64,000 nt of DNA from Escherichia phage ime, in sequence record MN850576.1. One strand, 5' to 3'. The notes beneath the pieces are model-generated. The model did not search any database. It had not been told where the DNA came from and saw only the letters and a list, made by a program, of their open reading frames with translations. Below are positions 3,403 to 36,627 of this stretch, in pieces; the first letter of the stretch is position 1, and each line of letters opens with the position of its first letter. A program made the translations under genes and the position numbers.

Positions 3403-4728
3403 TTATTGATCAGAATTATCTTTCGTAATTAAGGTCTGGGTAAGTTTGTAATAGCGGAAGCCACCGCCACCTTGCCAGCTTGCAGACTTAGAAATACCAC
3501 CTTGATCTTCACCATCAATCACTTTTTGCAAGCGAGGGATAATATGGGTATGACAATGATCACCCAGTTCGATCAAGATCCAACGTCTTTTCATCTTGTG
3601 GGCTACAGCAGCAGTAGTTCCCGAACCGCCGAATGAATCCAATACCAAATCACCTTCTCGCGTACACATTTCGAGAATCCGCTTCAAAAGCGCTTCTGGT
3701 TTTTTTCCATTTTTGAAACTAACGCCGCCTTCATTTGCTATTCCATTCCAACTAATGTCTGTCCAAACATCAGTTATTAGTTCCGCAGGTTGCATCTCAC
3801 CGTCAATTTCCAAAAGCCTGTTGGAGTAAAAGACCATTTGCCTACCATTTGCGATATAAAATCCTTCAACATCCTCATTCGGATGTGCATAAACCTTATC
3901 CCTATCTTTCTTTGACTTCTCGATAGTTTCTTTTCTCTTTATTTTAGCGCCACCACCAATTGCAACAGATTGAAATACACGTTCTGCATTATCAATTGCG
4001 AATTGTGCTAATTCATCATCGAATGTGTCAGGCAGTTTTTTCTTAGCTTCTTTTGCATCTTTATAGCCATTGGCCTTTGCAAACGCATCGGCAATACCGC
4101 ACCACGTCCAATTTTTATAATGGTCATCCGGGTTTAATAGGTATTTGTTATATCCTGTATCATACCCTTTAGGTATATAGATTTTGTTAAGCGGTTTCTG
4201 GGTGCGATCTTTTGCATATACAAGCAAAAAGTTTGCTGTGGAGAAAACTGTGGCTCCTGTTGCCTTAAATCCCGAAGGGGAATTTGTGGTCATCGATATG
4301 GTATTTAACTGATTTGCACGACCAAAAATCTCGTCCATCAAAACTTTTAAATACGCCATTTCGCAATCATCTAAGTGAACGAATATTACCCCATCATCAC
4401 TTAGAAGATTACGAATTATTTCTAACCTATCCCTCATTAAGCCCAGCCAAATGGAATGCTCAAGGCTATCATCGTAGTGCTCAAAAGCCCTTCCAGTATT
4501 GAATGGTGGGTCTATGTAAACACATTTCACTTTGCCTGCATACTCTTGCTCTAGCGCCTTCAATGCTAATAAGTTATCTCCAAAAATCAGTTTATTATCA
4601 AAAATATCGTTTTCGGTCACTTTCTGGCTGTGGTAAGACTTGCTAGAATCTTCTAACAAAATGTGCGGCTCTAACTTTTTGCGCTCGTTTTTACCTATCC
4701 AGGTTAGTTCTAATTTGGTTTTACTCAT
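3403..4728 (-). CDS. DNA amino-methyltransferase, beta class (N6-adenine or N4-cytosine)
   Basis: Motif IV YIDPPFNTG near N-terminus and motif I DSFGGSGTT near C-terminus (IV-TRD-I order = beta class). Confidence 0.8.
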   Translation of the reverse strand: MSKTKLELTWIGKNERKKLEPHILLEDSSKSYHSQKVTENDIFDNKLIFGDNLLALKALEQEYAGKVKCVYIDPPFNTGRAFEHYDDSLEHSIWLGLMRDRLEIIRNLLSDDGVIFVHLDDCEMAYLKVLMDEIFGRANQLNTISMTTNSPSGFKATGATVFSTANFLLVYAKDRTQKPLNKIYIPKGYDTGYNKYLLNPDDHYKNWTWCGIADAFAKANGYKDAKEAKKKLPDTFDDELAQFAIDNAERVFQSVAIGGGAKIKRKETIEKSKKDRDKVYAHPNEDVEGFYIANGRQMVFYSNRLLEIDGEMQPAELITDVWTDISWNGIANEGGVSFKNGKKPEALLKRILEMCTREGDLVLDSFGGSGTTAAVAHKMKRRWILIELGDHCHTHIIPRLQKVIDGEDQGGISKSASWQGGGGFRYYKLTQTLITKDNSDQ

Positions 4729-21477: not shown

Positions 21478-24036
21478 TTAACGAGAAAAGGTTGCGTAGG
21501 CTTCTAGACGATACTGCTGGTCACCAGGGAACATAACACCTATAGAGGCTGTCCCTAGAATCCTGCCTTCCTTTCCAGACTCCATTCTGAACCCTACCCA
21601 TCCTGAACTCCTTGCAGCCTCGATGTTGTCGCTATACCCGAAAGTGGCAAGATCGTCAACACCAGCCCCAAACAGCAACTGAAGCTGACTTCTCGGAAGC
21701 CCTATAATTTCAGGAATATACGCACCAAAGTACACCATCTGCCCTACCTTAGGACCGCTGCCGTACTCCATCGGTTTGCTTGTAGAGAAAGTCTTCATAC
21801 CAGAAGTACCTGCCGGATTAGGGTATGCCCCGTTTGTTGCTGTACCTATCCACATTCTCCACTGTGGTGCCATCTGTTTGACAGTAAAAGATGTTGAAGA
21901 CGTTTTGCGCCCTGCATCATCTGTAACTACAAACTTTATGGTGACATTCCCAGTAGCTTTAAATGTTACCAGTCCTGTGGTGGCATCCACTGTTGCAATG
22001 TTGGTATTACTACTTTCCCAAGTCTTTCTAATCCCGGATACGTTGGAAGGGGTAATAGAAGGTTCCTGCATCTGCAGTTTACCACCCACAATCCCTATGC
22101 CGTTGCCCGGATTATACAGCACACCAACCTCGTCTATAATGTTCCCTGCTTTGAGACTATACTTCCTTGAGAAGTTGTAGGTTCCGTTATAAGTGTGTGT
22201 CCCTGAGAAGGTGACATCTGCCTTCCCGTAAGAGATGCAAACCAAAGCATACTTCCTGTCAGGCAACGTTTCTCCAGTCTCTGGGTGAGTTTTACCTACC
22301 TGGAACACACTCGGGTCAGTAGAGTCGTGACTATCACTAACGGAGCTTGGACCGCCCATCAACTGTGACAAACAATTCCTTACCCATGTCCAGTTATTAT
22401 CGCTGGAGAAGTCCACAGTCAAATCAAACACAACCCACTCATTTGGCTTCCACACAGGTGTTGTAATGGACTTGCCTACACCACCTCCTTGGAGTGTTGC
22501 CGACTGTTCGGTGATCAGGGCCGTATAGGCCAGAGTTCCTAAACTCAGAGTCTGGCTTGCTGTCCTCACTACCTTAGAATCAGCATCTGTGAAGTTGTTG
22601 ATGATTTGGAATGTGCCATAAGTGTTTTTACAGGTAATTCTGGCGTTCAGCGTGTCAATCTTCCTCACATCTGCCATAGCAGTGTTAGACACAGAGAAGT
22701 CAGAAGCTTTAGCTGAGTTTGCCGCAACAGCAGGATCAACGTTAAGAGTTGCGTTGAACTGACAGGCAGGGGTAACCAGCAGCTTGTTATCACCTATTTG
22801 CTTCCATGAAATACTTTGGACAGGTAGATTCCATTTAATACCTGAGAAAACTTTAGCAACCCTTGGCCCCAAAGCTCCAGTCCTGTTGTCTTTACAGCAC
22901 ATAGACATGGTGATCGTTGACGGAGTTGCCTGACCAAATAATTGCTGTGCTTTTGCAGAGGACATAGTGTAGAAATTGTCCTTAACAAACTCATCAGCAG
23001 CTAAAGATCCATCAGCTCTCCACCACTGAACCTGGTACCCTGTTTTGTCCCAACCACCGACCTGCTTCAAGTCCTCCCAGGAGATTTCTAGATCCCCAGT
23101 GGTAGGGTTGATTGCAGCAGTTCCCGGTGTTCCGGGTGACCACAATGGAATATCGAACCACGCTGGTTTAACCGACTGCACTGCGCTGGGACCTATTGCG
23201 GCAGCAAGTTGCTGGCCCATCAATACGCGAGCATCTTTCACCAGACCCCACTCGATCATAGACCCAGAGTAACCTTCTTTCTTGTAGGCTGAGGATCCGT
23301 TCAAATGGATGAGTCGGCTTGTGCCAAAGTTATGTGCTCCACCACCGTTGTCGTCTGCAAAATTGGTTATGATTCTATCCCTGATATTTTTCCATGCCCT
23401 GCCCCCAATCTCATAGTCATGGTCATAACATCTTTGCAGTGTTGTCCAGCAAATGATCGCCATCCTTCTACCATCGCTGAATCCAAAGGCCTGATCGTTA
23501 AGCTCTCTCCACAAGTAGCAGTTAGTGGTCCACATGGCCCTATGAATGTTAAACCAGTTTATAGATTTGGCTGAGTTGTCCCACTGAGTCCCAGGTAATT
23601 CAGGCCATACTGCATTAACCAGCATGTCTTCTGTTCCTGCATCAACCAAGAACCCTCTTACCTTCTTACCCATGCCTACCCTATCTTTTGCAATCCAGCT
23701 GCCAAACAATCTCAGTTTTGGACCGTAGACAACATCTTCCGGATGCTCAAAAGAAACATATTTTAGGTATATTGTAGGGTCACCATAGGTGCCATCACAA
23801 ACAGCTTTGTGCATGTTCTCGCCAAGGTCTAGACGAAGTCCTGTTACAACTTTAGACGTGTCGGTGAATTTGTCTGTTAAATCAAACTCATACCACCACC
23901 AACCTGCACCCAACAATACTTTCTTACAACGCTGTGCGTCTGTATCAGATATTCTCTTCCCCTGCAAAAGGTGAGTCAGCAAACTGATAGTGCAGAGCGA
24001 TCTCAAAAGGATGTGTGGATGTCCCGTTTTCTGCAA
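21478..24036 (-). CDS. Large virion-associated protein with C-terminal Big_2 (Ig-like) domain
   Basis: C-terminal ITPSNVSGIRKTWESSNTNIATVDATTGLVTFKATGNVTIKFVVTD matches a Big_2 pattern; called TTG start overlaps the upstream gene by 92 nt, so the true start is probably further downstream. Confidence 0.55.
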   Translation of the reverse strand: MQKTGHPHILLRSLCTISLLTHLLQGKRISDTDAQRCKKVLLGAGWWWYEFDLTDKFTDTSKVVTGLRLDLGENMHKAVCDGTYGDPTIYLKYVSFEHPEDVVYGPKLRLFGSWIAKDRVGMGKKVRGFLVDAGTEDMLVNAVWPELPGTQWDNSAKSINWFNIHRAMWTTNCYLWRELNDQAFGFSDGRRMAIICWTTLQRCYDHDYEIGGRAWKNIRDRIITNFADDNGGGAHNFGTSRLIHLNGSSAYKKEGYSGSMIEWGLVKDARVLMGQQLAAAIGPSAVQSVKPAWFDIPLWSPGTPGTAAINPTTGDLEISWEDLKQVGGWDKTGYQVQWWRADGSLAADEFVKDNFYTMSSAKAQQLFGQATPSTITMSMCCKDNRTGALGPRVAKVFSGIKWNLPVQSISWKQIGDNKLLVTPACQFNATLNVDPAVAANSAKASDFSVSNTAMADVRKIDTLNARITCKNTYGTFQIINNFTDADSKVVRTASQTLSLGTLAYTALITEQSATLQGGGVGKSITTPVWKPNEWVVFDLTVDFSSDNNWTWVRNCLSQLMGGPSSVSDSHDSTDPSVFQVGKTHPETGETLPDRKYALVCISYGKADVTFSGTHTYNGTYNFSRKYSLKAGNIIDEVGVLYNPGNGIGIVGGKLQMQEPSITPSNVSGIRKTWESSNTNIATVDATTGLVTFKATGNVTIKFVVTDDAGRKTSSTSFTVKQMAPQWRMWIGTATNGAYPNPAGTSGMKTFSTSKPMEYGSGPKVGQMVYFGAYIPEIIGLPRSQLQLLFGAGVDDLATFGYSDNIEAARSSGWVGFRMESGKEGRILGTASIGVMFPGDQQYRLEAYATFSR

Positions 24037-27000
24037 GAACTTGTTTACCTATCAGGTCGCACTTAATGATCATCACAACACGTTTGTATCCGTTTGTTAC
24101 CGGAATTTGCATGGACATGGATGTCCCATCCATGTTTGATCTCAGTGCAGTCATGATGATATAAGGGTCAACTGCATTGCCCAAAGTCTCAGGACCGGGG
24201 ATTATCTTATACTTCTTGACCTGCCCCATGATGTAGTCACTTGCGTAAGTTGCCTCATTCAAGCAAGATCCCCCACCAGGTAACTCACCAGGTCCCCAGA
24301 AAAATGCGCCGTAACAGTTGTAGAACCACTTGTTAGGATCGTATTTATTCTTGAAGGTCTGAACCTCGTTGGCCTGTTTTGTCAAGAAAACCTGCGTGTC
24401 TGTGAAGATTGCAGGGTTTACTCTCGCCTGTCTTGGAGGGTAACCTGTAGTTTGGTTAAACCACAAATTACAAGAGTAATCCCTCATATAGTCATAATCA
24501 GAGTATTTGTTTACATCTTCGTTCCAACACATGTTTAGGTTGGTACCGCCCATGCATACAATATATTCTGCGACATACTTATCACTTCTGGTAGGAATAC
24601 CTATGAACCATCTGTTAACAGGCTCATCCCAAGCTGTGCGCTCATCTTTAACGCAGATAGCAATCCAGTCATGTGTTCCTGTTTTCTTGCACACATCTCG
24701 CTTCATGCCATAGTAGAACTCTTTAGTATTCGGCTCAGGTGCATTTATCAGGTAACTCCATGCCTGATTTGCATAAGTTCCATTGGTGCGTGGATCATGA
24801 TCAAAGGCATACATGATGATCCTTTCCCCACCAAGATGTTCGCCAAGAGTAACTTTGACATTCACATCGCCGTAACCATTGCGAACAACATCCATATTAT
24901 CAATAGAGATACCTCTGGGCGTGTAGGCAATTTTCAGCGAGTTATCTTCACTAGTGCCGCCAAGTGTAATCCCTATGTTGTTTGTTGTCCCGTCGACATA
25001 TCTTACTGTAGCTTCCCAGCGTATTCCGAAATATCCTGCATCATGGCTGACAATTTTCAGTGTACGAGCTCCCGGGTGAGGTTTTCCAGGATCAGGCCAA
25101 GGGTCTGGGTGTTCGTGAACAGTCAACGACGTTCCGTTCTGCTCATTAACCTGCAACATTTTACCACCCTTGCCATTAGGATTGAACTCCCACAAGGCTT
25201 GTGTTTTCACAATATTGTCATACGTGGCGCGTCTTTGATCGTAGATCTCTTGGGTCACATCATAAGTGACTGATCCAGCATCCATTCTGTGGAGTCTGAC
25301 CATATACGATGTATCCCCTTCTACTGCAGGTTGGGTCCCATTCAGCCCAAAGTATACAGTATCGTTAACATGGAACTGCTTGTTTCTACCAACGGTATGC
25401 CACTTGCCGTTGGACGGATACGCAGGAACTATGGTGTTCCAGTTCAAAGTCCTTGTCGTGTGAGTTCTGCCTGTGCCATGCTTGTCATGATAGGTTATTT
25501 TTACAGAGTACAGGCCACGTCTGTTAACATTTCTGTTATACTGGGTAACAACAACTTCGTTGGCCCCGCCGTGGTTCCAGTTGGTGGAGAATTGGTAATT
25601 TGCATCTGTAACAACCGTACCTGCAGCATTCACCAGTTCAATCTTGTCAATGATGAACGTAGCTCCCTCTGGCTGAGGCTTCAATTTCATCTTGACCGTG
25701 TCACCAATGTAGATATTGCTAACACTACTAACACCATTAACGTCGAAAATATCATCAACGCCCCAACTGTCTACTGGGACATTTTTATACCAATTCTCAG
25801 GAACCTCTGTGAACCCCTGACTATTAAGTCTGCCGCCAAACAGGTTATTAGAGCCTGCAAAACTTCCCCTTGGGATGCCTGACCACCAAAGTTTGCCATT
25901 AACAACAGTAAAGGTCCCTAAGAAACCTTCTCTGTGGATACCCTGGAAATAAACACTTTCTGTCCAGCTTACTGGCATCCGTTGCTCGACGTATTTAGCC
26001 GTAGCCAGAGCCTGATAGTGAATAAAATTAGCCCTAGGACTGTTGTTTGCAGATTGTGCACCAATATCATTGCACAGATTGCGAGAGAAGCCACGATACT
26101 GTTTGGTGCCATTATTGAAGAAAATGCCACTTGTGCCGTATCCACGAGCCATTATCACCTCATGGGTGTAGGTGATATTTAAGGAACGCCATGTGTCATC
26201 TCCCCAGACGTCTTGCCCGTAGAATACGTTAACAAGCTGTTGGTCATCAGGTTTGTGCATCCTTTCTGTGGCTATAATTGCACCATTAGGTCCACACATG
26301 AACCCTTTCCATGTCTCGCCCACCGGGATGCCTTTAAACTGGTCAAGAGTCACATGCTCGGCTGGATAAACTAGTGTGTTTTTGCTGTTATTTCTTAAGA
26401 AATCGTAACCTGCAATCCAGAATCCGTTAGGACCACCAAAAATAACCGAGTTGTCATGCACCTCGCAGTTGATGCTTGGGTTTTTCCAAGGGCCTGTTTC
26501 AGGATTTTCCGATGTCTCGCCGATCTTTACGGGAGTTGCATGCTGATTTTTATCTACATGCAAAGATCCGTAGGTGTTGTTACCAGACCCATACAGGTTC
26601 AGTATGCCAGTGCCTTCTGCCTCTGCAATAACCCAGACAGTGTTGTTAATACCACCCATCACCTCAACAAGGCGTTCTGGGTGGGTGTCAAGGTGCAATC
26701 CTTTAACAATCTGCTCTGGGAGTGGTGTCCACTCGTTTACGCAAACATCATTACCGCCTGCCGCAGTGGATCCGATAAGACCTGCAGTGCAGCCGATGTA
26801 GAAAAACTGGTTATCAAAAGTCCGGATCACAAACGCGCGGTCTGCTCTCCACACATGATCAACATTCCAGGCTGTTTCGCTCGGATAGTTTATAGGGCTA
26901 CGATCCCCAGTGCGGCACTCTCCGAACTTGTTATAGCCAGTAATATTAAGCTGACCATCATCAAAAAGTATAGCTAAGCTATTTACATAGGATACTGTGT

Positions 27001-27112
27001 TGCTTGTACCATCACTGTTGTCTATTGGGTATGACAGAACAGCAAGTTCCTTAATTCCACCCCTCTTATCGAGGAAATGACGACCAAGTTTTAGCAAAGG
27101 GATTGGAAGCAT
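23945..27112 (-). CDS. Large tail fibre/spike-like protein with possible N-terminal RCC1-like repeats
   Basis: 1055 aa, rich in G/N/T/W/Y; N-terminal glycine-rich repeats reminiscent of a beta-propeller. Confidence 0.5.
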   Translation of the reverse strand: MLPIPLLKLGRHFLDKRGGIKELAVLSYPIDNSDGTSNTVSYVNSLAILFDDGQLNITGYNKFGECRTGDRSPINYPSETAWNVDHVWRADRAFVIRTFDNQFFYIGCTAGLIGSTAAGGNDVCVNEWTPLPEQIVKGLHLDTHPERLVEVMGGINNTVWVIAEAEGTGILNLYGSGNNTYGSLHVDKNQHATPVKIGETSENPETGPWKNPSINCEVHDNSVIFGGPNGFWIAGYDFLRNNSKNTLVYPAEHVTLDQFKGIPVGETWKGFMCGPNGAIIATERMHKPDDQQLVNVFYGQDVWGDDTWRSLNITYTHEVIMARGYGTSGIFFNNGTKQYRGFSRNLCNDIGAQSANNSPRANFIHYQALATAKYVEQRMPVSWTESVYFQGIHREGFLGTFTVVNGKLWWSGIPRGSFAGSNNLFGGRLNSQGFTEVPENWYKNVPVDSWGVDDIFDVNGVSSVSNIYIGDTVKMKLKPQPEGATFIIDKIELVNAAGTVVTDANYQFSTNWNHGGANEVVVTQYNRNVNRRGLYSVKITYHDKHGTGRTHTTRTLNWNTIVPAYPSNGKWHTVGRNKQFHVNDTVYFGLNGTQPAVEGDTSYMVRLHRMDAGSVTYDVTQEIYDQRRATYDNIVKTQALWEFNPNGKGGKMLQVNEQNGTSLTVHEHPDPWPDPGKPHPGARTLKIVSHDAGYFGIRWEATVRYVDGTTNNIGITLGGTSEDNSLKIAYTPRGISIDNMDVVRNGYGDVNVKVTLGEHLGGERIIMYAFDHDPRTNGTYANQAWSYLINAPEPNTKEFYYGMKRDVCKKTGTHDWIAICVKDERTAWDEPVNRWFIGIPTRSDKYVAEYIVCMGGTNLNMCWNEDVNKYSDYDYMRDYSCNLWFNQTTGYPPRQARVNPAIFTDTQVFLTKQANEVQTFKNKYDPNKWFYNCYGAFFWGPGELPGGGSCLNEATYASDYIMGQVKKYKIIPGPETLGNAVDPYIIMTALRSNMDGTSMSMQIPVTNGYKRVVMIIKCDLIGKQVLAENGTSTHPFEIALHYQFADSPFAGEENI

Positions 27113-27124
27113 TGTGTTCTCCAG

Positions 27125-27150
27125 ATAAGAAAACCGCCCCGTCAGGAGCG
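27125..27150 (-). terminator. Rho-independent terminator-like hairpin
   Basis: Minus-strand CCGCUCC-UGAC-GGGGCGG followed by UUUUCUUAUC. Confidence 0.45.
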
Positions 27151-27160
27151 GTTAGATATA

Positions 27161-28906
27161 TTAACGTTGTGCAATTACTACGTCTACGATATCACCAACA
27201 CCACAATACGTTAATTGCAGCAAGGTAACACTGTTAGCCTTGTTGTTAATAACAGGTGTTGCCGACAGGATAGCATACTTATCGTGCAAAGTCACGTTGT
27301 GACCTACAGCATCCTGAATTACATAGATAACCGCAGTGAATGGATAAGGTTTATCTTCCGCTGATGTCCCAGGCCACTGTCCTATTGTAAAATCCCCTTT
27401 CGCGTGAACAACATACATACTGGCCTGCCCGTTAGGTGTCCATGTCCCACTGGACGCGTCAACCTCCTCTAAATCAAAATCTACCTTTCCTGCGTGGAAA
27501 GTAGGGGCAGTAATGGTTTTACCCGCCTCAATTTCTTGAGAGGTGGTTATCTTGCCACTGGAGTTAATGCCATTACAGACAAAGTTGACATTAGAGAAGT
27601 CAGGCAACCACCCAGTCACCGTGCCGGATATTTCAAGGTTGTGAACAGAGGTGGTGCCAGTCCCTGCTGCGTTTAAACTGACATCTCCATTTACCTGCAA
27701 GTTGCGGGTAACGTTGCAGTTTTCAGAGTTTGCAGTTGTTGCAGTTAAAGTGGTTGTTGTCAGCTCGGTAATTACACCTTTGTTGGCTGTAAGCCCTTCT
27801 CCTTCAAAAGTTGCACGCTCATTGACTCTTAAGGTATTCAGAGCTATGTTTTGGATAGAGGCCGTACCTCGAATAACTACAGACCCGCCAACCTCCAAAT
27901 CGCCATTTATCAATGCATCACCAGTGCTTTCAATATAGCTAGGGTAGATCATGGTGCCATCGACAGAGTATGTTATCCCTGTAACGGTACCTGTCACCTC
28001 AAGGTTCTTAACCCTGGTGGTCCCATCTACCTGCAATGTCGGTTCGGTTGCTGCCTTCATGGCATTACCACGAATGTACACGTAGTCAAAAAAGTTATTA
28101 CCCAGACCATCAAAATGCACATCGTTATTATTAGCCACTGGTTTCCCAGAAGTTATAGTGTCAGCTATAACCCTGTGGGTGGACACTTCATGAGGTTGCA
28201 GCTCTGTACTTCTCCAGTCTGCATGCTTAGGATCGCTCCACGCAAAAGTAAGTGTAGAAGTATTTGCCGTGAGGATTAGATTCCTAAAGCGTGCAGTAGA
28301 ATCTGCCCCATTAACAGGTCCATGTAAGGTAAGGGTGCCACCAACTATAGTGTTAGCGAGTTCTGTAAGACCTTTTACCACCAAAGACCCTACAGTAACT
28401 TTCATCCCCTCCATGGCTTTAAATATGCTATCAACATAGTCAACAACAAACTCTGTGTTTGCTATGGACTCTGACTTATCGTCCATTGGAGGTGTAGGTA
28501 CTCGTGGGTCACCTTCGAACCTCGGGCTGTTAAGTTTTGCGTAGTATTTTGCCATTACTGCAGAGTCGGTATATAATCTCCAGTTTGGAGATTGTGAAGG
28601 ATCTGCTGGCATTCTAACCGGGTTAGATTTTGATGCTGCGGGAGCGTACCACCACTGAGGGCCTGTGTCCCCTTTAAACTCGTACAGCTGGTTAAAAACT
28701 GTTGTGGATGCACCATACGCCCAAGGGATCGGTGGCGTTTTAAAATAAAGGGTGTCAAGCATGGCTTTTCGTACCGTAGGGATGGTGGTCCCATCCTCTA
28801 CGACAACTTCATCCACAGCGTTACCGTTGACAACCAAGTGCAAACGTTCAGAATCAACAATTACTTGATCTACCGCCTGCTCAAAGCTTGTCATGTCTTG
28901 CGCCAT
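27161..28906 (-). CDS. Tail fibre-like protein
   Basis: 581 aa, T/N/G-rich repetitive composition typical of fibre shafts. Confidence 0.5.
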   Translation of the reverse strand: MAQDMTSFEQAVDQVIVDSERLHLVVNGNAVDEVVVEDGTTIPTVRKAMLDTLYFKTPPIPWAYGASTTVFNQLYEFKGDTGPQWWYAPAASKSNPVRMPADPSQSPNWRLYTDSAVMAKYYAKLNSPRFEGDPRVPTPPMDDKSESIANTEFVVDYVDSIFKAMEGMKVTVGSLVVKGLTELANTIVGGTLTLHGPVNGADSTARFRNLILTANTSTLTFAWSDPKHADWRSTELQPHEVSTHRVIADTITSGKPVANNNDVHFDGLGNNFFDYVYIRGNAMKAATEPTLQVDGTTRVKNLEVTGTVTGITYSVDGTMIYPSYIESTGDALINGDLEVGGSVVIRGTASIQNIALNTLRVNERATFEGEGLTANKGVITELTTTTLTATTANSENCNVTRNLQVNGDVSLNAAGTGTTSVHNLEISGTVTGWLPDFSNVNFVCNGINSSGKITTSQEIEAGKTITAPTFHAGKVDFDLEEVDASSGTWTPNGQASMYVVHAKGDFTIGQWPGTSAEDKPYPFTAVIYVIQDAVGHNVTLHDKYAILSATPVINNKANSVTLLQLTYCGVGDIVDVVIAQR

Positions 28907-28915
28907 GATTTCTCC

Positions 28916-29182
28916 TTAAGCTTTTTGCTCTTCGTTTTTAACGTGGTCAGGGTGCTGGCAACCCCACCGGAGCGAGATGAATTTGCTAATAAGCTGGGGG
29001 CAAGCTACTGAAGGCGCGTATATCCACGCATACCATTCAGGAAGCGTATCATTATACCCCATATGAATAAACACCCCAGTCATCACCGCCATGCCTATGT
29101 TCGACCATAGCTTAGATTGGGATACTTTCGTAGGGTCATCAGATGCCGCAACCAGTCCCCATAAAAACTGAGTTAGTTTCAT
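28916..29182 (-). CDS. Small membrane protein (holin-like?)
   Basis: 88 aa with hydrophobic segment NIGMAVMTGVFIHMGY. Confidence 0.4.
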   Translation of the reverse strand: MKLTQFLWGLVAASDDPTKVSQSKLWSNIGMAVMTGVFIHMGYNDTLPEWYAWIYAPSVACPQLISKFISLRWGCQHPDHVKNEEQKA

Positions 29183-29193
29183 TTACCCTCTTT

Positions 29194-30240
29194 TTAAGCA
29201 TAAGATATAGTGATCCATTGACCGTTTACAAGTTTTTGGATAGCACCTGTCCAGTAATCACCTTGATAAGGGTGTTTATAAGCGTAGTTACCAGAGCACA
29301 TCACATGTCCAGGGTAGACTCTTGACTCTCTGTAGGTGGTTTTGAAACGGTTCGCTATCCTTACATCGTCAACCCCTCTACTGGGCATAGGGACAGTAAG
29401 GTTACCACTACCGTCTGCGCTGTTACCGTTTACCCTGCGGACCACGTTTCTTCCACCAACGGTTGCATATTGGCCTCTAACGGTTTCATCGTTACAATCA
29501 ACTCTTCCACCTATTTGAGCGCTTCCGCAGGATTGTTGTCCGTTAACAGTGGCTCTTGGTATCGTGACCGCATTGGCATTTGCAGAGGAACTTTTTGCAT
29601 CGTTGCATTCAAGATTTCCTTGGATAGCCAGTCTTGCACGGTTGGCAGTTATAGCATTGAGCTTCATAGCCGAAAACACAGGCTGCCCACCAGAAGGTTG
29701 AAATCTCCAACGGAACCCGTCTATTTGGTGAGAAGGATCATCAAGGTCTGTGCCGTCAGCACCACCGATGTTGTCCATAATCCAGAAGTCCATCGTCGTC
29801 TTGTCTGGAGTTATGGTGGTATATATTGCCGCATTGTCTGTTGACGCAGATGCAAACTCGATTCTTTGAAGGCCTAAAGTTTGAGTCTGAGTCATTATGT
29901 CTCCAGACTTGTCAACATACAGATCGTCCATTTCTTCAGGCGAGTATACATTGAGAACTTGACGTGCAGCAGCTTTGTCTGGAACGTCTGCTAGATTATT
30001 AGTGACCCTTAAGAATCTATTATCCCATCCTGGGACAACATCTTCTGTTAAATGCTTTAACCACGCAGAAAGCATGTGAAGTTCAAAGTTAACAACTTCA
30101 CATGCCACTCTTTGTGTCATATCCCAACCTTTCAATCTCTCTTCTTTTTTTGGTTGAGACTTATTCAACTCTCCCGTATTTTCAAGCACAACATCCTGAT
30201 TGGCCCAAATATCAAGAGGGATAACTGGTTTAGTCATCAC
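29194..30240 (-). CDS. Tail fibre protein, paralog A
   Basis: 348 aa; paralog of 31252..32292 (shared PLDIWA/PLEIWA N-terminus, GDxMTxxxxLGLQRI, C-terminal QKLVNGQWIT-SYA). Confidence 0.6.
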   Translation of the reverse strand: MMTKPVIPLDIWANQDVVLENTGELNKSQPKKEERLKGWDMTQRVACEVVNFELHMLSAWLKHLTEDVVPGWDNRFLRVTNNLADVPDKAAARQVLNVYSPEEMDDLYVDKSGDIMTQTQTLGLQRIEFASASTDNAAIYTTITPDKTTMDFWIMDNIGGADGTDLDDPSHQIDGFRWRFQPSGGQPVFSAMKLNAITANRARLAIQGNLECNDAKSSSANANAVTIPRATVNGQQSCGSAQIGGRVDCNDETVRGQYATVGGRNVVRRVNGNSADGSGNLTVPMPSRGVDDVRIANRFKTTYRESRVYPGHVMCSGNYAYKHPYQGDYWTGAIQKLVNGQWITISYA

Positions 30241-30267
30241 GTTCTCCTGAGAAAATTCCTTAGGACT

Positions 30268-30296
30268 ATTTTAACACTTTAGGGAACAAAATGCAA
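30268..30296 (-). promoter_or_regulatory. Sigma70-like promoter TTGCAT-N17-(TGt)TAAAAT
   Basis: Plus-strand atgcaa 30291-30296 and atttta 30268-30273 with 17-nt spacer; upstream of the start of 29194..30240. Confidence 0.5.
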
Positions 30297-30326
30297 GAAC
30301 GGAGTCCTTTCCGTTCTGACCTTTGT

Positions 30327-30641
30327 TTACCTTTTACTATGCTCTACGAGCATGTGCAAAATCTTTTGTACATCGGCTCTGATGCCTGAGACATCTGTCC
30401 TGACATCCTGCTTAAGGTCGTTAATATCGGCCTCTAGCTTGCTTAACCGGGTCTCTATAACGGAATCAAGTTTATCTTTTGTAACCATACTGTTTTTCAC
30501 TAAGATGAGGTCTTTCTCCAGCTCATCCAACCTCTTGGAAATGCCTTTCCATTTGGTGTGCCACTGGTTGAAAGCCCATACACAGATCGGGACAACGGTG
30601 CCCATGCAGATACCGTACAATGCCGCCAAATCCAACTCCAC
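30327..30641 (-). CDS. Small membrane-anchored coiled-coil protein
   Basis: 104 aa with N-terminal hydrophobic helix (ALYGICMGTVVPICVWAF) and heptad-like C-terminus. Confidence 0.45.
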   Translation of the reverse strand: MELDLAALYGICMGTVVPICVWAFNQWHTKWKGISKRLDELEKDLILVKNSMVTKDKLDSVIETRLSKLEADINDLKQDVRTDVSGIRADVQKILHMLVEHSKR

Positions 30642-30652
30642 AACACCTCCTC

Positions 30653-31237
30653 TTAGAGGGTAGGTCGCTCCGGGAAGAAAATGTCAGGGGCTTTAGATGT
30701 ATCTATTTCAAGAAGTTTTACCCTGTACATTTTCAAATCTCTGATGTTACGTTTCTGGTCATCAGTAAGATCATATTCAAGGTCAATCATGTCTTGATAG
30801 GCACCAATTCTAGCAGTAGCCCAAGCAAGTTCTGTCTCTATGACACCCTCTGCCTGTTGAACAAAGAATTCATTGTCTGTGACAAATTCATCACCAACTA
30901 AACGCAAAGCGTCGTGGTGAAGCATAATGTTTTCTGGTACCTCTTCTTTTTTGGCGATAACCACACGAAGACCTGGAGCAGGCCATAAGGCATCAGGTTC
31001 TTCTGTAGATGTCTTAAGAATTCCCTTCTCGTCAACAAGTAGGAAGATACACCCTGGATTTTCTTGTCGTAATGTTCGTGACTGCACATACCAATCACCA
31101 TCATCATTACGTAAAAAATACCCAGTGTATGCGGTGTAATCCTCGACCTCTTGAGGGGTCAGCTCCTTGGTTTCCTTGTTGGAGTGGTATTCGCCAGATC
31201 CCGGTTGGTAAAGTTTAAACTCTTGAAGTATTTTCAT
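30653..31237 (-). CDS. Hypothetical protein (possible fibre assembly factor by position)
   Basis: 194-aa ORF immediately downstream of fibre paralog B. Confidence 0.45.
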   Translation of the reverse strand: MKILQEFKLYQPGSGEYHSNKETKELTPQEVEDYTAYTGYFLRNDDGDWYVQSRTLRQENPGCIFLLVDEKGILKTSTEEPDALWPAPGLRVVIAKKEEVPENIMLHHDALRLVGDEFVTDNEFFVQQAEGVIETELAWATARIGAYQDMIDLEYDLTDDQKRNIRDLKMYRVKLLEIDTSKAPDIFFPERPTL

Positions 31238-31251
31238 GCTAGTCCTCCGAT

Positions 31252-32292
31252 CTATGCATAATTAACAGTGATCCATTGACCATTTACAAGTTTTTGTAAA
31301 GGTCCTGCCCAGTAGGTTGAACCACGCATCTCTTTTTTGTCACCGAAATGCCAGCCTGTGACAACGTATCCGTTGCGGATTGGAGATTCAGAAACGCCGT
31401 CCACAAGTCTTGCACCGATTCTGATGTCTTGCACACCTGTCTGCGGGATAGTGATCGTTACATCACCGTTACCGTTAGCCGTCACTCCATTCACGGAGCG
31501 CACCACATTTCTGTTACCGACAACACAGTGCTGGCTTCTTACAACCATACTGTCACAACTTGCACCACCATTGACATATACTGACCCAGCCGTCAACTGA
31601 CTGGCCACATTACAGTTGGTGAATGTTGCTGTATTGCTGATAGTAAGGTTATTGCACCTCATGTTATCGACAACTTCAACATTGCCTACCACTTTCAACA
31701 GCGCACGATTAGCCGTGATCGCGTTAAGGTACATCAAAGTGAACTCTGGATTAATATCCGGCTGAGTTGGCTGGAATCTCCAACGAAACGCATCTACTGT
31801 AGATGTACCACCATCATCAAACGACCCGGTATTATCACTTAACCCAAAGTCGAGGGTTGTCTTATCTGGGCCAATAGTTGTCTCTATCCAAGCCTTATCT
31901 GTCTCGGCAGCTTTAAAGTTGATACGTTGCAACCCCAAGGGGCCTGTCATTGTATCACCTGTAACTTTTACATACCTGGCGTCTGCCTCTTCCTTAGTGA
32001 TAATCCCAAGGTTTCTACGGGCAACAGGAATGTTCAAAAGATCGCTCAAGTTATTATCACGTACCAGATAACGGCCTTCTTGAGCTGGGATCTGCTCGTC
32101 AGCAATGTATTTTGCCCAAGTCCCGAGCATATTGAAAATATAGTTAAGTTCTTCACATGAGGGCTTTTGACCAAGATCCCAACCTTTTCTCCACAAATCA
32201 TCAATCGGGCGTAGCCTGTTCTGTCTGTGGGTGTTAGGCAGAACCTGATCCTCCTCTGCCCAAATCTCTAATGGAAAACTAGGTTTTGACAT
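31252..32292 (-). CDS. Tail fibre protein, paralog B
   Basis: 346 aa; paralog of 29194..30240. Confidence 0.6.
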   Translation of the reverse strand: MSKPSFPLEIWAEEDQVLPNTHRQNRLRPIDDLWRKGWDLGQKPSCEELNYIFNMLGTWAKYIADEQIPAQEGRYLVRDNNLSDLLNIPVARRNLGIITKEEADARYVKVTGDTMTGPLGLQRINFKAAETDKAWIETTIGPDKTTLDFGLSDNTGSFDDGGTSTVDAFRWRFQPTQPDINPEFTLMYLNAITANRALLKVVGNVEVVDNMRCNNLTISNTATFTNCNVASQLTAGSVYVNGGASCDSMVVRSQHCVVGNRNVVRSVNGVTANGNGDVTITIPQTGVQDIRIGARLVDGVSESPIRNGYVVTGWHFGDKKEMRGSTYWAGPLQKLVNGQWITVNYA

Positions 32293-32304
32293 TTTATCTC
32301 CTGA

Positions 32305-34377
32305 TTATGAGAAGTCTGGCGGGACAACATCTTCTACATACCCTTTCAGAGCAACCTGCCCCATATGAAGCACGGTAGAATCTCTAGCGGTAACAGTGAT
32401 GCTGTCAGACATTACTTGCGGGTATGCCCACACATACTGTTTTACCTCAGGATATCTATACTCTATAGTTGCCATGTTTCCGCAAATACATCTCCATAAA
32501 AATTCTTGGTAATTCCTGGTTGGGTCGTAACCATATACCGGAGCAAGCTCTTTACTAGGAACGAACCCTGCAAGGTATTGTATTTCAGACGGTTGCCAAC
32601 CTAACTTAACGATAGGTATGTTTACAGACTCTTTTGCCTTTTCAATACCTCCCTGCATCACCCAATCGTAGCACTCGGTGCAGAAGAAATCAAGAGCACC
32701 TGCTTCCTTTTTATATTGGTCAGCAAGGTTAAGCTTTTGCGTAAGCTCGGTTTCCATAATGGTTGGGAAAAACAGCAGAGCTGTCATCTGAGCTGATGCA
32801 GCGTGTGCCTTTATTGCCTTTGAAATAGCCGCAATACGAGCGCCAAGCTTACCACGACAAAATGCTACATACTTATCGTAAACACCGCCAGTTTTAGGAT
32901 CGTCAATAGTCCCAATATCTAATGCATACTCGCCTGTCTCATCATAAAACGCCTGTTTTGTAGGGTAATCATAAATACAAGGTCTACGAGTATCGGTATT
33001 GTACCACCACCACGGTTCACCAACCTGCATAATCACTGGCAGGTTGTTTCTCATAGCGGCTGATGCAAAATTCTTAAATACTGCAGTAAGGAAATTCATA
33101 CCCTCTTCAATGGTTGGAGACAGGAGGTAGCTACAAGGTGTATACCCTGTTTTAGCGTAGTTATCGTTCCAGTCTCTTTGGGTCCATTCCAACGGGCAGG
33201 CATCGCTGAAAAGCTCAAAACTTACAGATTGCATAACGTCGAAGTTATGTCGTTTGGCATTGTACATAAAATCATCATGCCATTTATAAGCTGCAGCGTT
33301 TAGCGCTCCTGTTCTGTTTATAGACCATTGGGTTCCTGACCATGTGTAGTCATAATAATGACTCATACCAACATAATGGTTTATGGTTCCGGTATAGCCC
33401 AGACGCTTGATATTGTTCAACACCCTTAAAGGAGACACGTTCCACATATCATCATATGCGGTGCAGATCCCAACATCGTGCTCTCTCACCTGGATATTGT
33501 TAAGTTGCATCATTTTCCAGCCTGTGTCTGGCTGAAGCAGATCTAGGCGCAACTCACACTCTACATTTTCCGTTCTCGGGTCTGTGCTATTACTTACCCA
33601 GTCTTTAGGCATAAGCGGTATTAAAATCCTTCTCACCTGCCGAGGATCAACACCCATCATGCTGTTGTTCTGGTCCATCCCGACGCAGTCCTCAAAATCA
33701 ATATGAATTTCTGCAACATTCTTATCCTCTGAGATGCTGACAGCATATTGAGCTAAAGGAACATAGATGATTGTGCCATCAACAAGGTCTACAGTCATAA
33801 TCATCTTTTCAGGAGTGGAGAAGTTGCTGGCGTTGGTTATTGACATTCTGAACCAGAGCTTGGTGTTTCTCATCTCATAATGATCATCAAACCCAATGCC
33901 GAAATGGTCATACTTGTCAACTGTTTCCCAAATGCACCCAGCCATACCTCCATATGTTCTTGACACTAAACGGTTAATACAACAGTTGTTATCTGCAACA
34001 ATACAGGTACTTTCAGTCTGCTGAGTAGTTGTAACCCAATATCTTGGGTGGAACATTCTCTCCTCAACAGTATCCCAAGATATCCTGTCGAGATTCTCAT
34101 CTGAAACTATTGTACATTTCGCCCTTTGTGTTCCAATCATTACCCCTTGGGATTTTGATGAAAACTCCATAAAGAAGCTTCTTGGTAACCTGTTGGGTAA
34201 TTTGTCAACAATTTCCACGGGGATCTCAACACTGGTTGCCCCAATTGGGATAGTTACATCGCCCTCAACATGATTATAATCTCTACCAGGAACGGCAGTA
34301 TCCTGAACTGTTCGGTAATGAAACTGTGCAGCCATTGTAGAGTAATCACGGTAAGGTTTAAAAACAGCTGTTGCCAT
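32305..34377 (-). CDS. Virion-associated protein with N-terminal Calx-beta-like motif and large C-terminal domain (possible glycanase)
   Basis: N-terminal DTAVPGRDYNHVEGDVTIPIGATSVEIPVEIVDK pattern; 690 aa. Confidence 0.45.
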   Translation of the reverse strand: MATAVFKPYRDYSTMAAQFHYRTVQDTAVPGRDYNHVEGDVTIPIGATSVEIPVEIVDKLPNRLPRSFFMEFSSKSQGVMIGTQRAKCTIVSDENLDRISWDTVEERMFHPRYWVTTTQQTESTCIVADNNCCINRLVSRTYGGMAGCIWETVDKYDHFGIGFDDHYEMRNTKLWFRMSITNASNFSTPEKMIMTVDLVDGTIIYVPLAQYAVSISEDKNVAEIHIDFEDCVGMDQNNSMMGVDPRQVRRILIPLMPKDWVSNSTDPRTENVECELRLDLLQPDTGWKMMQLNNIQVREHDVGICTAYDDMWNVSPLRVLNNIKRLGYTGTINHYVGMSHYYDYTWSGTQWSINRTGALNAAAYKWHDDFMYNAKRHNFDVMQSVSFELFSDACPLEWTQRDWNDNYAKTGYTPCSYLLSPTIEEGMNFLTAVFKNFASAAMRNNLPVIMQVGEPWWWYNTDTRRPCIYDYPTKQAFYDETGEYALDIGTIDDPKTGGVYDKYVAFCRGKLGARIAAISKAIKAHAASAQMTALLFFPTIMETELTQKLNLADQYKKEAGALDFFCTECYDWVMQGGIEKAKESVNIPIVKLGWQPSEIQYLAGFVPSKELAPVYGYDPTRNYQEFLWRCICGNMATIEYRYPEVKQYVWAYPQVMSDSITVTARDSTVLHMGQVALKGYVEDVVPPDFS

Positions 34378-35063
34378 TAACCCTCCTGTCTAGTTGCGTT
34401 TACTGTAATACTTTCACAATAAATGGTTGTGGTGTCCCAATCAGGTCTTACGTCAGGAACATATAGCAAAGTAGCCAGCCCACCAACTCCGAATTGGTTT
34501 TCTTCCCATACTGATCCGAAGCCAAGAGCTGTAGAGTCCCCTTCAAAACCAAAAGCTTGCCCTTGCGATTCTGTAAGACGCAAATGACAAGGCAATGGTA
34601 GCATATCTAAGATCTGATCGATAGACTGCAATATGTCAAAGCAAGTTTTTCTAATATTTATGTCAAACCTGAAGTTGTCTCCTTTCCACGTATCGAAATT
34701 GTCTCTTCCGAACAATTGTCGCAAGGTGGAGATGACATCTTCGCGAGTCCCGCCCCTTGATGCTGCGGCCTGCTGAATAATTAGTGTGGCACGAAAATCA
34801 GCATCTGAAAGTCCATTCCTAAGAATACCAAGTTGATTACCAACTTCGTCAAGGTATCTTCCGCTGGCATTGTTAAGCAATCTTCCTTCAGCCAAACCTA
34901 CCAGCATCTTATCAACATCCTCCAACCTTTTAAGGTATACGGTTAAGAATGTGACTAAATTAACCTTCTCAGCCAGAAAATCTCCAGGCAGGTAGTCAAG
35001 ACCTCCCTGAACAAAATCTGGCAGAGTGTGGATGTGGTTAACATCCGACTTAATCTCTGCCAT
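34377..35063 (-). CDS. Tail/baseplate-associated protein (by position)
   Basis: 228-aa ORF, stop/start coupled to neighbours. Confidence 0.45.
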   Translation of the reverse strand: MAEIKSDVNHIHTLPDFVQGGLDYLPGDFLAEKVNLVTFLTVYLKRLEDVDKMLVGLAEGRLLNNASGRYLDEVGNQLGILRNGLSDADFRATLIIQQAAASRGGTREDVISTLRQLFGRDNFDTWKGDNFRFDINIRKTCFDILQSIDQILDMLPLPCHLRLTESQGQAFGFEGDSTALGFGSVWEENQFGVGGLATLLYVPDVRPDWDTTTIYCESITVNATRQEG

Positions 35064-36565: not shown

Positions 36566-36598
36566 GTCACTCCTCCGGTATGAAAATCTCTACAAGGT

Positions 36599-36627
36599 AT
36601 TTTACCAAATTTTGTAACAATAGTCAA
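36599..36627 (-). promoter_or_regulatory. Sigma70-like promoter TTGACT-N17-(TGg)TAAAAT
   Basis: Plus-strand agtcaa 36622-36627 and atttta 36599-36604 with 17-nt spacer; between the terminator and the start of 35075..36565. Confidence 0.5.

Follow-up and report, generated by a model that had tools for sequence, protein, structure and literature searches.

In this study, we have analysed 64,000 nucleotides (nt) of Escherichia phage ime (sequence record MN850576.1; this whole stretch is referred to as the window), focusing on a locus in which two short-tail-fibre genes are interleaved with genes for small membrane proteins. Its five genes correspond to gp33, gp32, gp31, gp30, and gp29 of phage rV5, as judged from the rV5 gene table and the CarlMeissner and LL12 records, and the rV5 names are used throughout. 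Our comparison identifies gp29, a protein of 88 amino acids (aa), as the best comparative candidate for a lysis protein in these phages, and shows that gp31 and gp29 belong to a membrane-protein module that is conserved in the fibre operons of related genera. On the positions of its homologues, gp29 is probably lysis related; that it is the holin proper is a narrower proposal, to which we give somewhat less than an even chance. Taken as a whole, and including a lysis role for gp29, the explanation that we favour, and that will probably hold, is that the phage is an rV5-like Vequintavirus and that these genes form its short-tail-fibre locus, at a point where two late transcription units meet. 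The identities of the two fibres (gp33 and gp30) and of their chaperone (gp32) are close to certain.

Relatives of gp29 in lysis cassettes

The case for gp29 comes from the genes that flank its relatives in other phages. In five independent contexts (L014/L015, L017, L022, Ralstonia phage RS138, and Pseudomonas phage Bise), a member of its family, phrog_1322, is encoded between endolysin and spanin genes. The family member of a Mu-like metagenomic phage separates a VanY/M15 endolysin gene from a Phage_lysis (Rz) gene; on another contig it lies between the genes for a CHAP-type protein and an i-spanin/LysC pair, and on a third between those for an M15 endolysin and a protein with a transmembrane domain (TMD). 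The cultured Mu-like phages RS138 and Bise have the same arrangement, with the family member upstream of an Rz or Rz-like gene; its upstream neighbour is an M15 endolysin in Bise and, in RS138, a protein annotated only as "virion protein" that has no Pfam match. Each of these lysis-cassette members was confirmed as phrog_1322 (E = 1e-19 to 1e-23), and the Bise protein matched the gp29 family profile with an hhalign probability of 99.6%, compared with 0% for the reversed control.

The lysis genes already recognised in these phages leave a place for such a protein. The LL12 endolysin, whose gene lies outside this window, is soluble and lambda-R-like and carries neither a signal nor a signal-anchor-release (SAR) segment. 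The LL12 i- and o-spanin genes, which include a lipobox, adjoin the terminase gene, and a complete pair is likewise found there in rV5 and CB7. The holin of the subfamily has been reported as unidentified or only guessed at (PMC6658697, PMC3606486, PMC7344957, PMC9862379). With a soluble endolysin of this kind, spanins encoded elsewhere, and no assigned holin, a holin is needed, and because its family sits between endolysin and spanin genes in other phages, gp29 is most likely a lysis protein. It can be envisioned that, late in infection, gp29 builds up in the inner membrane and subsequently permeabilises it, allowing the soluble endolysin to reach the wall; gp29 would thereby be either the holin that is still missing from the annotation of these phages or a protein that works closely with that holin. 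A first-pass annotation of this DNA, made by a model from the letters and their open reading frames (ORFs), had suggested that the 88-aa protein could be a holin-like lysis component, and that suggestion gains support from the homologue positions described here.

Several observations weigh against a lysis role. The gp29 gene is in a fibre operon, not beside an endolysin gene, and in LL12 the endolysin and spanin genes are each tens of kilobases from the gp29 homologue. The gp29 helices are weakly hydrophobic (Kyte-Doolittle hydropathy, KD19, of ~1.0), and no TMD was called in rV5 gp29 by TMHMM or Phobius (Table S3 of PMC3606486). The C-terminal tail of gp29 (17 residues, with 3 K/R and 3 D/E) is charged and not net basic, and the protein matches no Pfam or PHROG holin family. 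L017 encodes two other multi-TMD proteins upstream of its endolysin; therefore, the family member there may not be the holin but an accessory protein, possibly an antiholin. The family member stands alone within the replication module, antisense to the replication genes, in nine T4-like contigs or phages, a placement that is uninformative about lysis; a T4-type late promoter (TATAAATA) was sought upstream of the family members in the T4-like contigs and was not found, a result that is uninformative. Other holin candidates have also been proposed, namely, rV5 gp129 (PMC3606486) and CB7_82 (PMC7344957). The CRISPRi-ART paper, considered for knockdown data on the rV5-like phage EdH4, covered only capsid and rII genes, and the Mydo and Moby genome announcements make no statement on lysis.

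One other small gene was seen near the LL12 endolysin gene. Immediately downstream of it (L013, 6122-6328), LL12 encodes a 68-aa protein with a signal-peptide or lipobox-like N terminus (…FMAACLACG…), which is unrelated to the gp29 family (hhalign probability, 0.1%).

Family, fold, and predicted topology of gp29

A profile search of 1.84 billion representative sequences recovered the gp29 family as 60 clusters. Its members share a core of the form SHTKxWSNxG...T..F / Y..VA....SK....K.G, with a short acidic loop and variable charged tails, and some have an extra N-terminal helix. RefSeq and PHROGs label the family "membrane protein." AlphaFold2, run on a 51-sequence alignment, modelled gp29 as a hairpin of two transmembrane (TM)-length helices (residues 22 to 43 and 49 to 73) with modest confidence (mean predicted local distance difference test [pLDDT] score, 62). 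Of the membrane character that the first-pass annotation attributed to both small proteins, TM prediction bore out a clear helix in the 104-aa gp31 (KD19, 1.91); for gp29 the signal is weak and the hairpin model is of limited confidence. Family charges of +1.5 ahead of the first helix and -0.7 within the loop were obtained, which suggests that both termini are cytoplasmic (N-in/C-in); the C-terminal tails average 23 residues, with ~4 K/R and ~4 D/E.

Pfam DUF2644 (PF10841) was matched by 7 of 57 family representatives (best E = 6.3e-5), and some database relatives carry a precomputed PF10841 match; however, gp29 itself gave no DUF2644 match even at E ≤ 10, and on these profile scores any relationship is remote at best. 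PDB sequence searches with gp29 and gp31 returned no meaningful match, and NCBIfam gave nothing useful.

In Stenotrophomonas phage Moby (L027, 3880-4235), a phrog_1322 ORF with the extra N-terminal helix lacks annotation; the opposite-strand gene CPT_Moby_033 is annotated over it, and a same-strand terminator is annotated directly after it.

A membrane-protein module shared across genera

In CR3 (Certrevirus), a Seunavirus-like Salmonella phage, Mydo, W70, SSBI34, and Hena1, the gene order is baseplate, one fibre, chaperone, gp31-like, X, gp29-like, and large fibre, where X (phrog_7451), a membrane protein with approximately five helices, is polytopic and about 128 to 157 aa long. The true start of X overlaps the stop codon of the gp31-like gene as ATGA in CR3 and Mydo, an arrangement that points to translational coupling. 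Aeromonas phage phiA047 has the same order of fibre, chaperone, and gp31-like genes, with a gp29-like gene further along, whereas in phi92-like phages the gp29-like gene is upstream of the baseplate gene and a weakly related protein with a TMD and a coiled coil is encoded after the chaperone. Based on this order across genera, it is concluded that gp31 and gp29 are part of a module of membrane proteins that is conserved within the fibre operon.

X was not found in the window. It occurs in 110 phage records, and no rV5-like Vequintavirus is among the 30 of those records that were sampled; gp30 occupies the slot that X holds in the other genera. In Vequintavirus, therefore, X is replaced by a second fibre gene with its own promoter, and gp31 and gp29 would be the remainder of a three-gene membrane module (gp31-like, X, and gp29-like) of the subfamily's fibre operon.

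Some annotated starts in this module appear to be too far downstream, namely, those of X in CR3 (L003, 5336-5794) and Mydo (L008, 3812-4285) and that of the gp29-like gene in Hena1 (L011, ~4300-4552). The longer ORFs add a hydrophobic N-terminal segment in each case, and X then overlaps the preceding stop codon (ATGA).

Mass spectrometry of CB7 virions detected the fibre proteins CB7_31 and CB7_36, and CB7_32 to CB7_35 were not listed (PMC7344957). CB7_33 to CB7_35 were equated with the gp31-like, X, and gp29-like proteins by gene order only, and CB7 is the only relative with the module for which there is a virion proteome; in this one relative, the gp31-like and gp29-like proteins would thus not be virion parts. 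Such an absence is also what would be expected of assembly factors, and it is one reason to consider that gp31 and gp29 (together with X in the relatives) might be inner-membrane-anchored morphogenetic helpers that organise or chaperone the assembly of the short tail fibres or baseplate at the membrane and are then left behind. In every Vequintavirinae genus examined, and also in phiA047, the gp31-like gene comes directly after the fibre and chaperone genes, a place taken in the phi92-like phages by the weakly related protein; the gp29-like gene is always inside the baseplate/fibre cluster of these groups, and the genes, which form part of a late structural operon, overlap or lie close together. 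However, the gp29 family also occurs without nearby fibre genes, in the Mu-like lysis cassettes and T4-like replication modules, and a dedicated chaperone, gp32, is already present. Furthermore, synteny within a conserved structural module can reflect hitch-hiking; the T4 holin gene t itself sits beside fibre genes 37 and 38. On balance, we regard a morphogenetic role as unlikely, and a lysis role for gp29 remains our preferred reading.

More improbable still is that gp29 and gp31 are host-takeover or superinfection-exclusion "morons" that alter the envelope and thereby block injection by related phages, in the manner of T4 Imm or of T5 Llp, which is encoded beside a receptor-binding gene. PHROGs does file phrog_1322 under "moron, auxiliary metabolic gene and host takeover," the proteins are small inner-membrane proteins encoded beside receptor-binding genes, and in T4-like contigs a family member beside the DNA polymerase gene loosely recalls T4 imm. 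Nevertheless, gp29 was rejected as an Imm-like protein (hhalign probability, 0.2%), and in those contigs the gene is antisense to early genes and lies across gene 43 from imm. PADLOC gave a single weak coiled-coil match, of gp31 to JetC (E = 0.0038). In addition, the genes point in the same direction as late structural genes, and the sole promoter nearby is of late type, whereas exclusion proteins act early, and they are conserved core genes across the subfamily rather than sporadic ones.

The membrane-tethered protein gp31

The N-terminal hydrophobic helix of gp31 spans residues 5 to 23 and is followed by a heptad-rich charged region; rV5 gp31 was listed as "membrane protein, 1 TMD" (Table S3 of PMC3606486). 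Its N-terminal flank (MELD) has no K/R and its C-terminal flank has four K/R in 15 aa, a pattern shared by seven homologues. These charges predict an N-out/C-in topology, a prediction that is only moderately reliable for such short N-terminal tails. In hhalign comparisons, a reversed-sequence control outscored the real comparisons, so weak coiled-coil matches are noise.

The position of gp31 after the chaperone, and the coupling of its counterpart to X in the relatives, allow either a lysis-regulator or an assembly role. Because its constant neighbour, gp29, is lysis associated, we lean weakly towards the former, in which gp31, membrane tethered and with a probably cytoplasmic coiled coil, could act with gp29 as a timing or regulatory partner. 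That gp31 has no homology to any lysis protein weighs against the wider lysis interpretation. The regulatory role is tentative and, in our estimate, rather doubtful.

The first-pass annotation had also offered a spanin-like role for the 104-aa protein. An i-spanin-like or Rz-like function would suit the general shape of gp31, an N-terminal TMD followed by a coiled coil, and the phi92-like counterpart weakly matches a PHROG annotated as an Rz-like spanin (E = 5e-4); however, the predicted topology is opposite to that of the LL12 i-spanin, there is no lipobox ORF, and hence no lipoprotein partner, in or adjoining gp31, a complete spanin pair is already present beside the terminase gene in LL12, rV5, and CB7, and the coiled-coil matches are noise, so this suggestion can be dismissed almost entirely.

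Short tail fibres and their chaperone

A 7.5-kb query around the locus matched 118 phage records, and for 110 of these the match covered 80% or more of the query; the best match was 99.5% identical, and the relatives are Vequintavirus phages such as rV5, LL12, Murica, and CarlMeissner. All five ORFs of the locus are on the minus strand; neighbouring ORFs are 10 to 15 nt apart, but 86 nt separate the 104-aa gene from the second fibre gene. The two fibre proteins are 43% identical over their full length (BLASTP, E = 1e-95), in agreement with the first-pass annotation, which had described a pair of paralogous fibre genes among which genes for small membrane-type proteins are interspersed; the gp29 ORF is just beyond the range that it stated (29194-32292). 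These fibres, together with gp32, have already been described for rV5 by Kropinski et al. in 2013 (PMC3606486) and Maffei et al. in 2021 (PMC8594841), and the duplication is therefore already known for rV5-like phages.

Divergence between gp33 and gp30 is mosaic. In sliding windows, identity is ~50% over the first 30 residues, ~27 to 30% over residues 40 to 80, and 50 to 67% over residues 100 to 200, which form the longest and best conserved block; beyond this it falls to ~27% with indels (200 to 245), rises to 50 to 57% (250 to 280), falls again to ~27% (285 to 325), and ends with 20 nearly identical residues. At the DNA level, only the final 62 nt can be aligned, at 82% identity. The pattern of conserved termini and a divergent centre put forward earlier thus holds for the termini but not for the centre, which contains the best conserved block (residues ~100 to 200).

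Both termini can be related to structures. Residues 1 to 108 of gp33 match the N terminus of the short tail fibre of Pectobacterium phage phiTE (PDB 9cuy, E = 1.4e-19), as does the N terminus of gp30 (E = 2e-8); in the phiTE cryo-electron microscopy structure, residues 3 to 92 form a joint that attaches to the baseplate wedge monomers (PMC11972413). Residues 286 to 343 of gp33 match the C terminus of the Mu tail fibre protein S (PDB 5yvq, E = 1.7e-6), whereas gp30, despite having its last 20 residues in common with gp33, did not reach significance at E = 0.01 against the same structure. Both gp33 and gp30 possess the N-terminal domain by which, in the solved baseplate of phiTE, the fibre is plugged into the wedge, and they also have the extreme C terminus in common; the divergent blocks of the distal half may allow gp33 and gp30 to read different features of the lipopolysaccharide (LPS) core. 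Alternative receptor specificities, which the first-pass annotation suggested, had in fact been proposed for rV5 gp30 and gp33 in 2013: Kropinski et al. reported 42.3% identity between the two rV5 paralogues and proposed the recognition of two LPS chemotypes (PMC3606486). The BASEL study found allelic variation in neither paralogue (PMC8594841).

Against the single-copy fibres of other genera, gp33 scored 295 bits (Seunavirus-like phage) and 248 bits (Mydo), compared with 219 and 168 bits for gp30, and gp33 is about equally close to these fibres and to gp30. Since gp33 outscores gp30, gp33 is the resident orthologue and gp30 is an extra copy, one that is old and either faster diverging or acquired.

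Left unassigned by the first-pass annotation, gp32 is the fibre chaperone. Residues 121 to 192 match Pfam Caudo_TAP (PF02413; 45.7 bits against a cut-off of 22.1, E = 9e-12), the protein also matches phrog_136, "tail fiber assembly protein" (E = 2.2e-36), and its homologues in CarlMeissner, LL12, and rV5 are annotated as tail fibre chaperone or assembly proteins. The gene begins 15 nt past the gp33 stop codon, and the fibre-chaperone order is the same in six other genera; a PDB sequence search with gp32 gave no meaningful match. The alternative proposal that the small membrane proteins are the fibre chaperones is thus contradicted, as the Caudo_TAP match assigns that function to the 194-aa gp32. 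A single chaperone of the Mu gpU or lambda Tfa type, gp32, might fold both fibres through their common C-terminal tip.

Transcription units and neighbouring genes

The 86-nt gap upstream of gp30 holds both a terminator-like hairpin and a late-promoter-like motif (Table 1). The hairpin has a predicted RNA folding energy of -17.5 kcal/mol (z = -3.6), and none of 200 shuffled sequences was as stable. The motif TGKTAAAATA has five matches in the window, compared with 0.51 expected, and all five are on the minus strand, which is the late-gene strand. These features suggest two units: the first would run from a promoter upstream of gp36 (baseplate) through gp35, gp34, gp33, gp32, and gp31 to the hairpin, and the second from its own late promoter through gp30, gp29, and gp28 to a terminator. 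In the mechanical ORF, gp30 starts at GTG 30240 (348 aa), whereas public records use ATG 30237 (347 aa), which is better spaced from the AGGAG ribosome-binding site. The gp28 protein is annotated as a lateral tail fibre with a glycosidase domain.

Table 1. Genes and putative regulatory features of the short-tail-fibre locus (window coordinates)
Feature	Position	Strand	Evidence
gp33, short tail fibre, 346 aa; resident orthologue, beside chaperone gene	31252..32292	-	phrog_4465, E = 1.8e-171
gp32, tail fibre assembly protein (chaperone), 194 aa	30653..31237	-	Caudo_TAP PF02413; phrog_136
gp31, 104 aa, N-terminal TM helix and ~75-aa coiled coil	30327..30641	-	phrog_5345, E = 1.1e-48
gp30, short tail fibre, 347/348 aa; extra and more divergent paralogue	29194..30240	-	phrog_4465, E = 5.4e-166
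gp29, 88 aa, predicted two-helix hairpin membrane protein	28916..29182	-	phrog_1322, E = 2.7e-32
gp28, tail fibre, 581 aa; final gene of the gp30-gp29-gp28 late unit	27161..28906	-	phrog_4549, E = 1.2e-250
Terminator-like hairpin directly after gp31	30296..30317	-	8- to 9-bp stem, then UGCAUUUUGU
Late-promoter-like motif TGTTAAAATA upstream of gp30	30267..30276	-	Putative late promoter P030, rV5 Table S4
Late-promoter-like motif TGGTAAAATA upstream of baseplate gene; start of gp36-gp31 unit	36598..36607	-	Corresponds to rV5 P036
Intrinsic terminator closing the gp30-gp29-gp28 unit	27132..27153	-	9-bp stem with 6 GC, T-run; same sequence as rV5 t028 (Table S4)

Several features of the surrounding DNA and of the matching records were also observed. 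In the 690-aa gp34 (32305-34377, minus strand), Calx-beta occurs together with the N-terminal and TIM-barrel domains of the "non-contractile tail sheath protein" (Pfam PF23844 and PF23845, E = 4e-80); its gene is an insertion that separates the baseplate protein gene from the first short fibre gene, where the other genera examined have no gene. The giant lateral-fibre gene (1,878 aa in rV5 gp27 and LL12 gp26) is split in the window into two minus-strand ORFs, 27112..23945 (1,055 aa) and 24036..21478. The split, at about 23958, is caused by a 2-nt gap relative to LL12 ("CTCTT--CCCCTGC" against "CTCTTATCTCCTGC"), which could be an error in the sequencing, a genuine truncation, or a site of frameshifting. 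Finally, 16 GenBank "Campylobacter phage" records (MG0656xx series) match window positions 27000 to 34500; these look like mislabelled or contaminant coliphage genomes, and in the examples inspected gp31 and gp29 were 99 to 100% identical at the protein level.

Implications

A broader proposal, which we advance tentatively and consider somewhat doubtful, is that phrog_1322 represents an unrecognised, widespread holin family, with the gp31-like protein and X as membrane-bound timing partners, so that a lysis clock would be built into the tail-fibre operon. If so, phrog_1322 would supply the missing holin of the Vequintavirinae, phi92-like phages, Aeromonas Plateaulakevirus, Menderavirus-type T4-like phages, and some Mu-like phages, and in Vequintavirus a second receptor-binding fibre would have taken the place of one lysis regulator (X). 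It would also add a holin family to annotation libraries, in which these proteins are now labelled only "membrane protein" or "moron," and would account for the three orphan membrane genes that are conserved in fibre operons throughout the subfamily. Phages of the rV5-like group and their relatives are common candidates for therapy and biocontrol, and gp29 is one small conserved gene to test; moreover, if the proposal is correct, engineers who swap tail-fibre cassettes may also move or delete lysis genes.

Comparison with known systems

In its general form gp29 is reminiscent of class II holins and pinholins (two TMDs, N-in/C-in) such as S21 of phage 21: it is likewise small, with a predicted two-helix hairpin, weakly hydrophobic helices, a charged hydrophilic C-terminal tail, and predicted late expression, and its homologues are encoded beside endolysin and spanin genes. 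Unlike those proteins, gp29 matches no annotated holin family, its gene is apart from the endolysin gene, it has no dual-start motif, and its tail is not net basic.

The closest architectural parallel to gp31 is the Mu releasin gp25 (DUF2730; PMC9239132), which is of similar length (99 aa, compared with 104 aa) and shares an acidic N-terminal tip, one N-terminal TMD, a predicted N-out/C-in topology, and a coiled-coil body. The context is different, however: DUF2730 has been reported only in transposable phages, within five genes of the endolysin, and gp25 pairs with a SAR endolysin, whereas the LL12 endolysin is soluble, has no hydrophobic N terminus, and is encoded ~49 kb from the gp31 homologue. 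Homology was rejected, as gp31 and two of its homologues gave no PF10805 match at E ≤ 1 and the hhalign probability was 5.3%; the resemblance is an architectural analogy only.

Proteins of comparable build were observed near gp29-family genes in other phages. In Bise, a protein with gp25-like architecture follows the gp29-family and Rz-like genes; this 92-aa protein (L026, 4234-4512) has an N-terminal TMD and a coiled coil, is in the position of Mu gp25, and has no similarity to gp31 (hhalign probability, 0.5%). Membrane-anchored coiled-coil proteins of 72 to 73 aa with a C-terminal TMD are encoded a few genes downstream of the gp29-family gene in L014 (7978-8196) and in RS138 (L025, 4520-4741). 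None of these small coiled-coil proteins of Bise, L014, and RS138 matches Pfam DUF2730.

For the fibres, the phiTE short tail fibre is homologous to gp33 and gp30 over its N-terminal ~85 to 108 residues; however, it is a single-copy protein of 554 aa that contains Ig domains and a long coiled coil. The Mu gpS/gpU system resembles the distal end and its chaperone: the C terminus of gpS is like the last ~60 residues of gp33, and gpU belongs to the same Caudo_TAP superfamily as gp32, but gpS, at 504 aa, is much longer than the fibres described here (346 aa). Mu tail fibres are exchanged by an invertible S/U-S'/U' switch; the fibres of this locus are tandem paralogues instead.

The nearest system is that of rV5 itself, in which gp30, gp33, and gp32 are the same genes at ~99% DNA identity, with two paralogues at 42 to 43% identity and a Caudo_TAP chaperone. 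Compared with the published rV5 locus, what is new is the recognition of gp33 as the resident fibre and of gp30 as an additional copy that has a late promoter to itself and fills the place of a membrane gene found in other genera; gp29 as a specific holin candidate and the conserved membrane module within the fibre operon are the further new elements.

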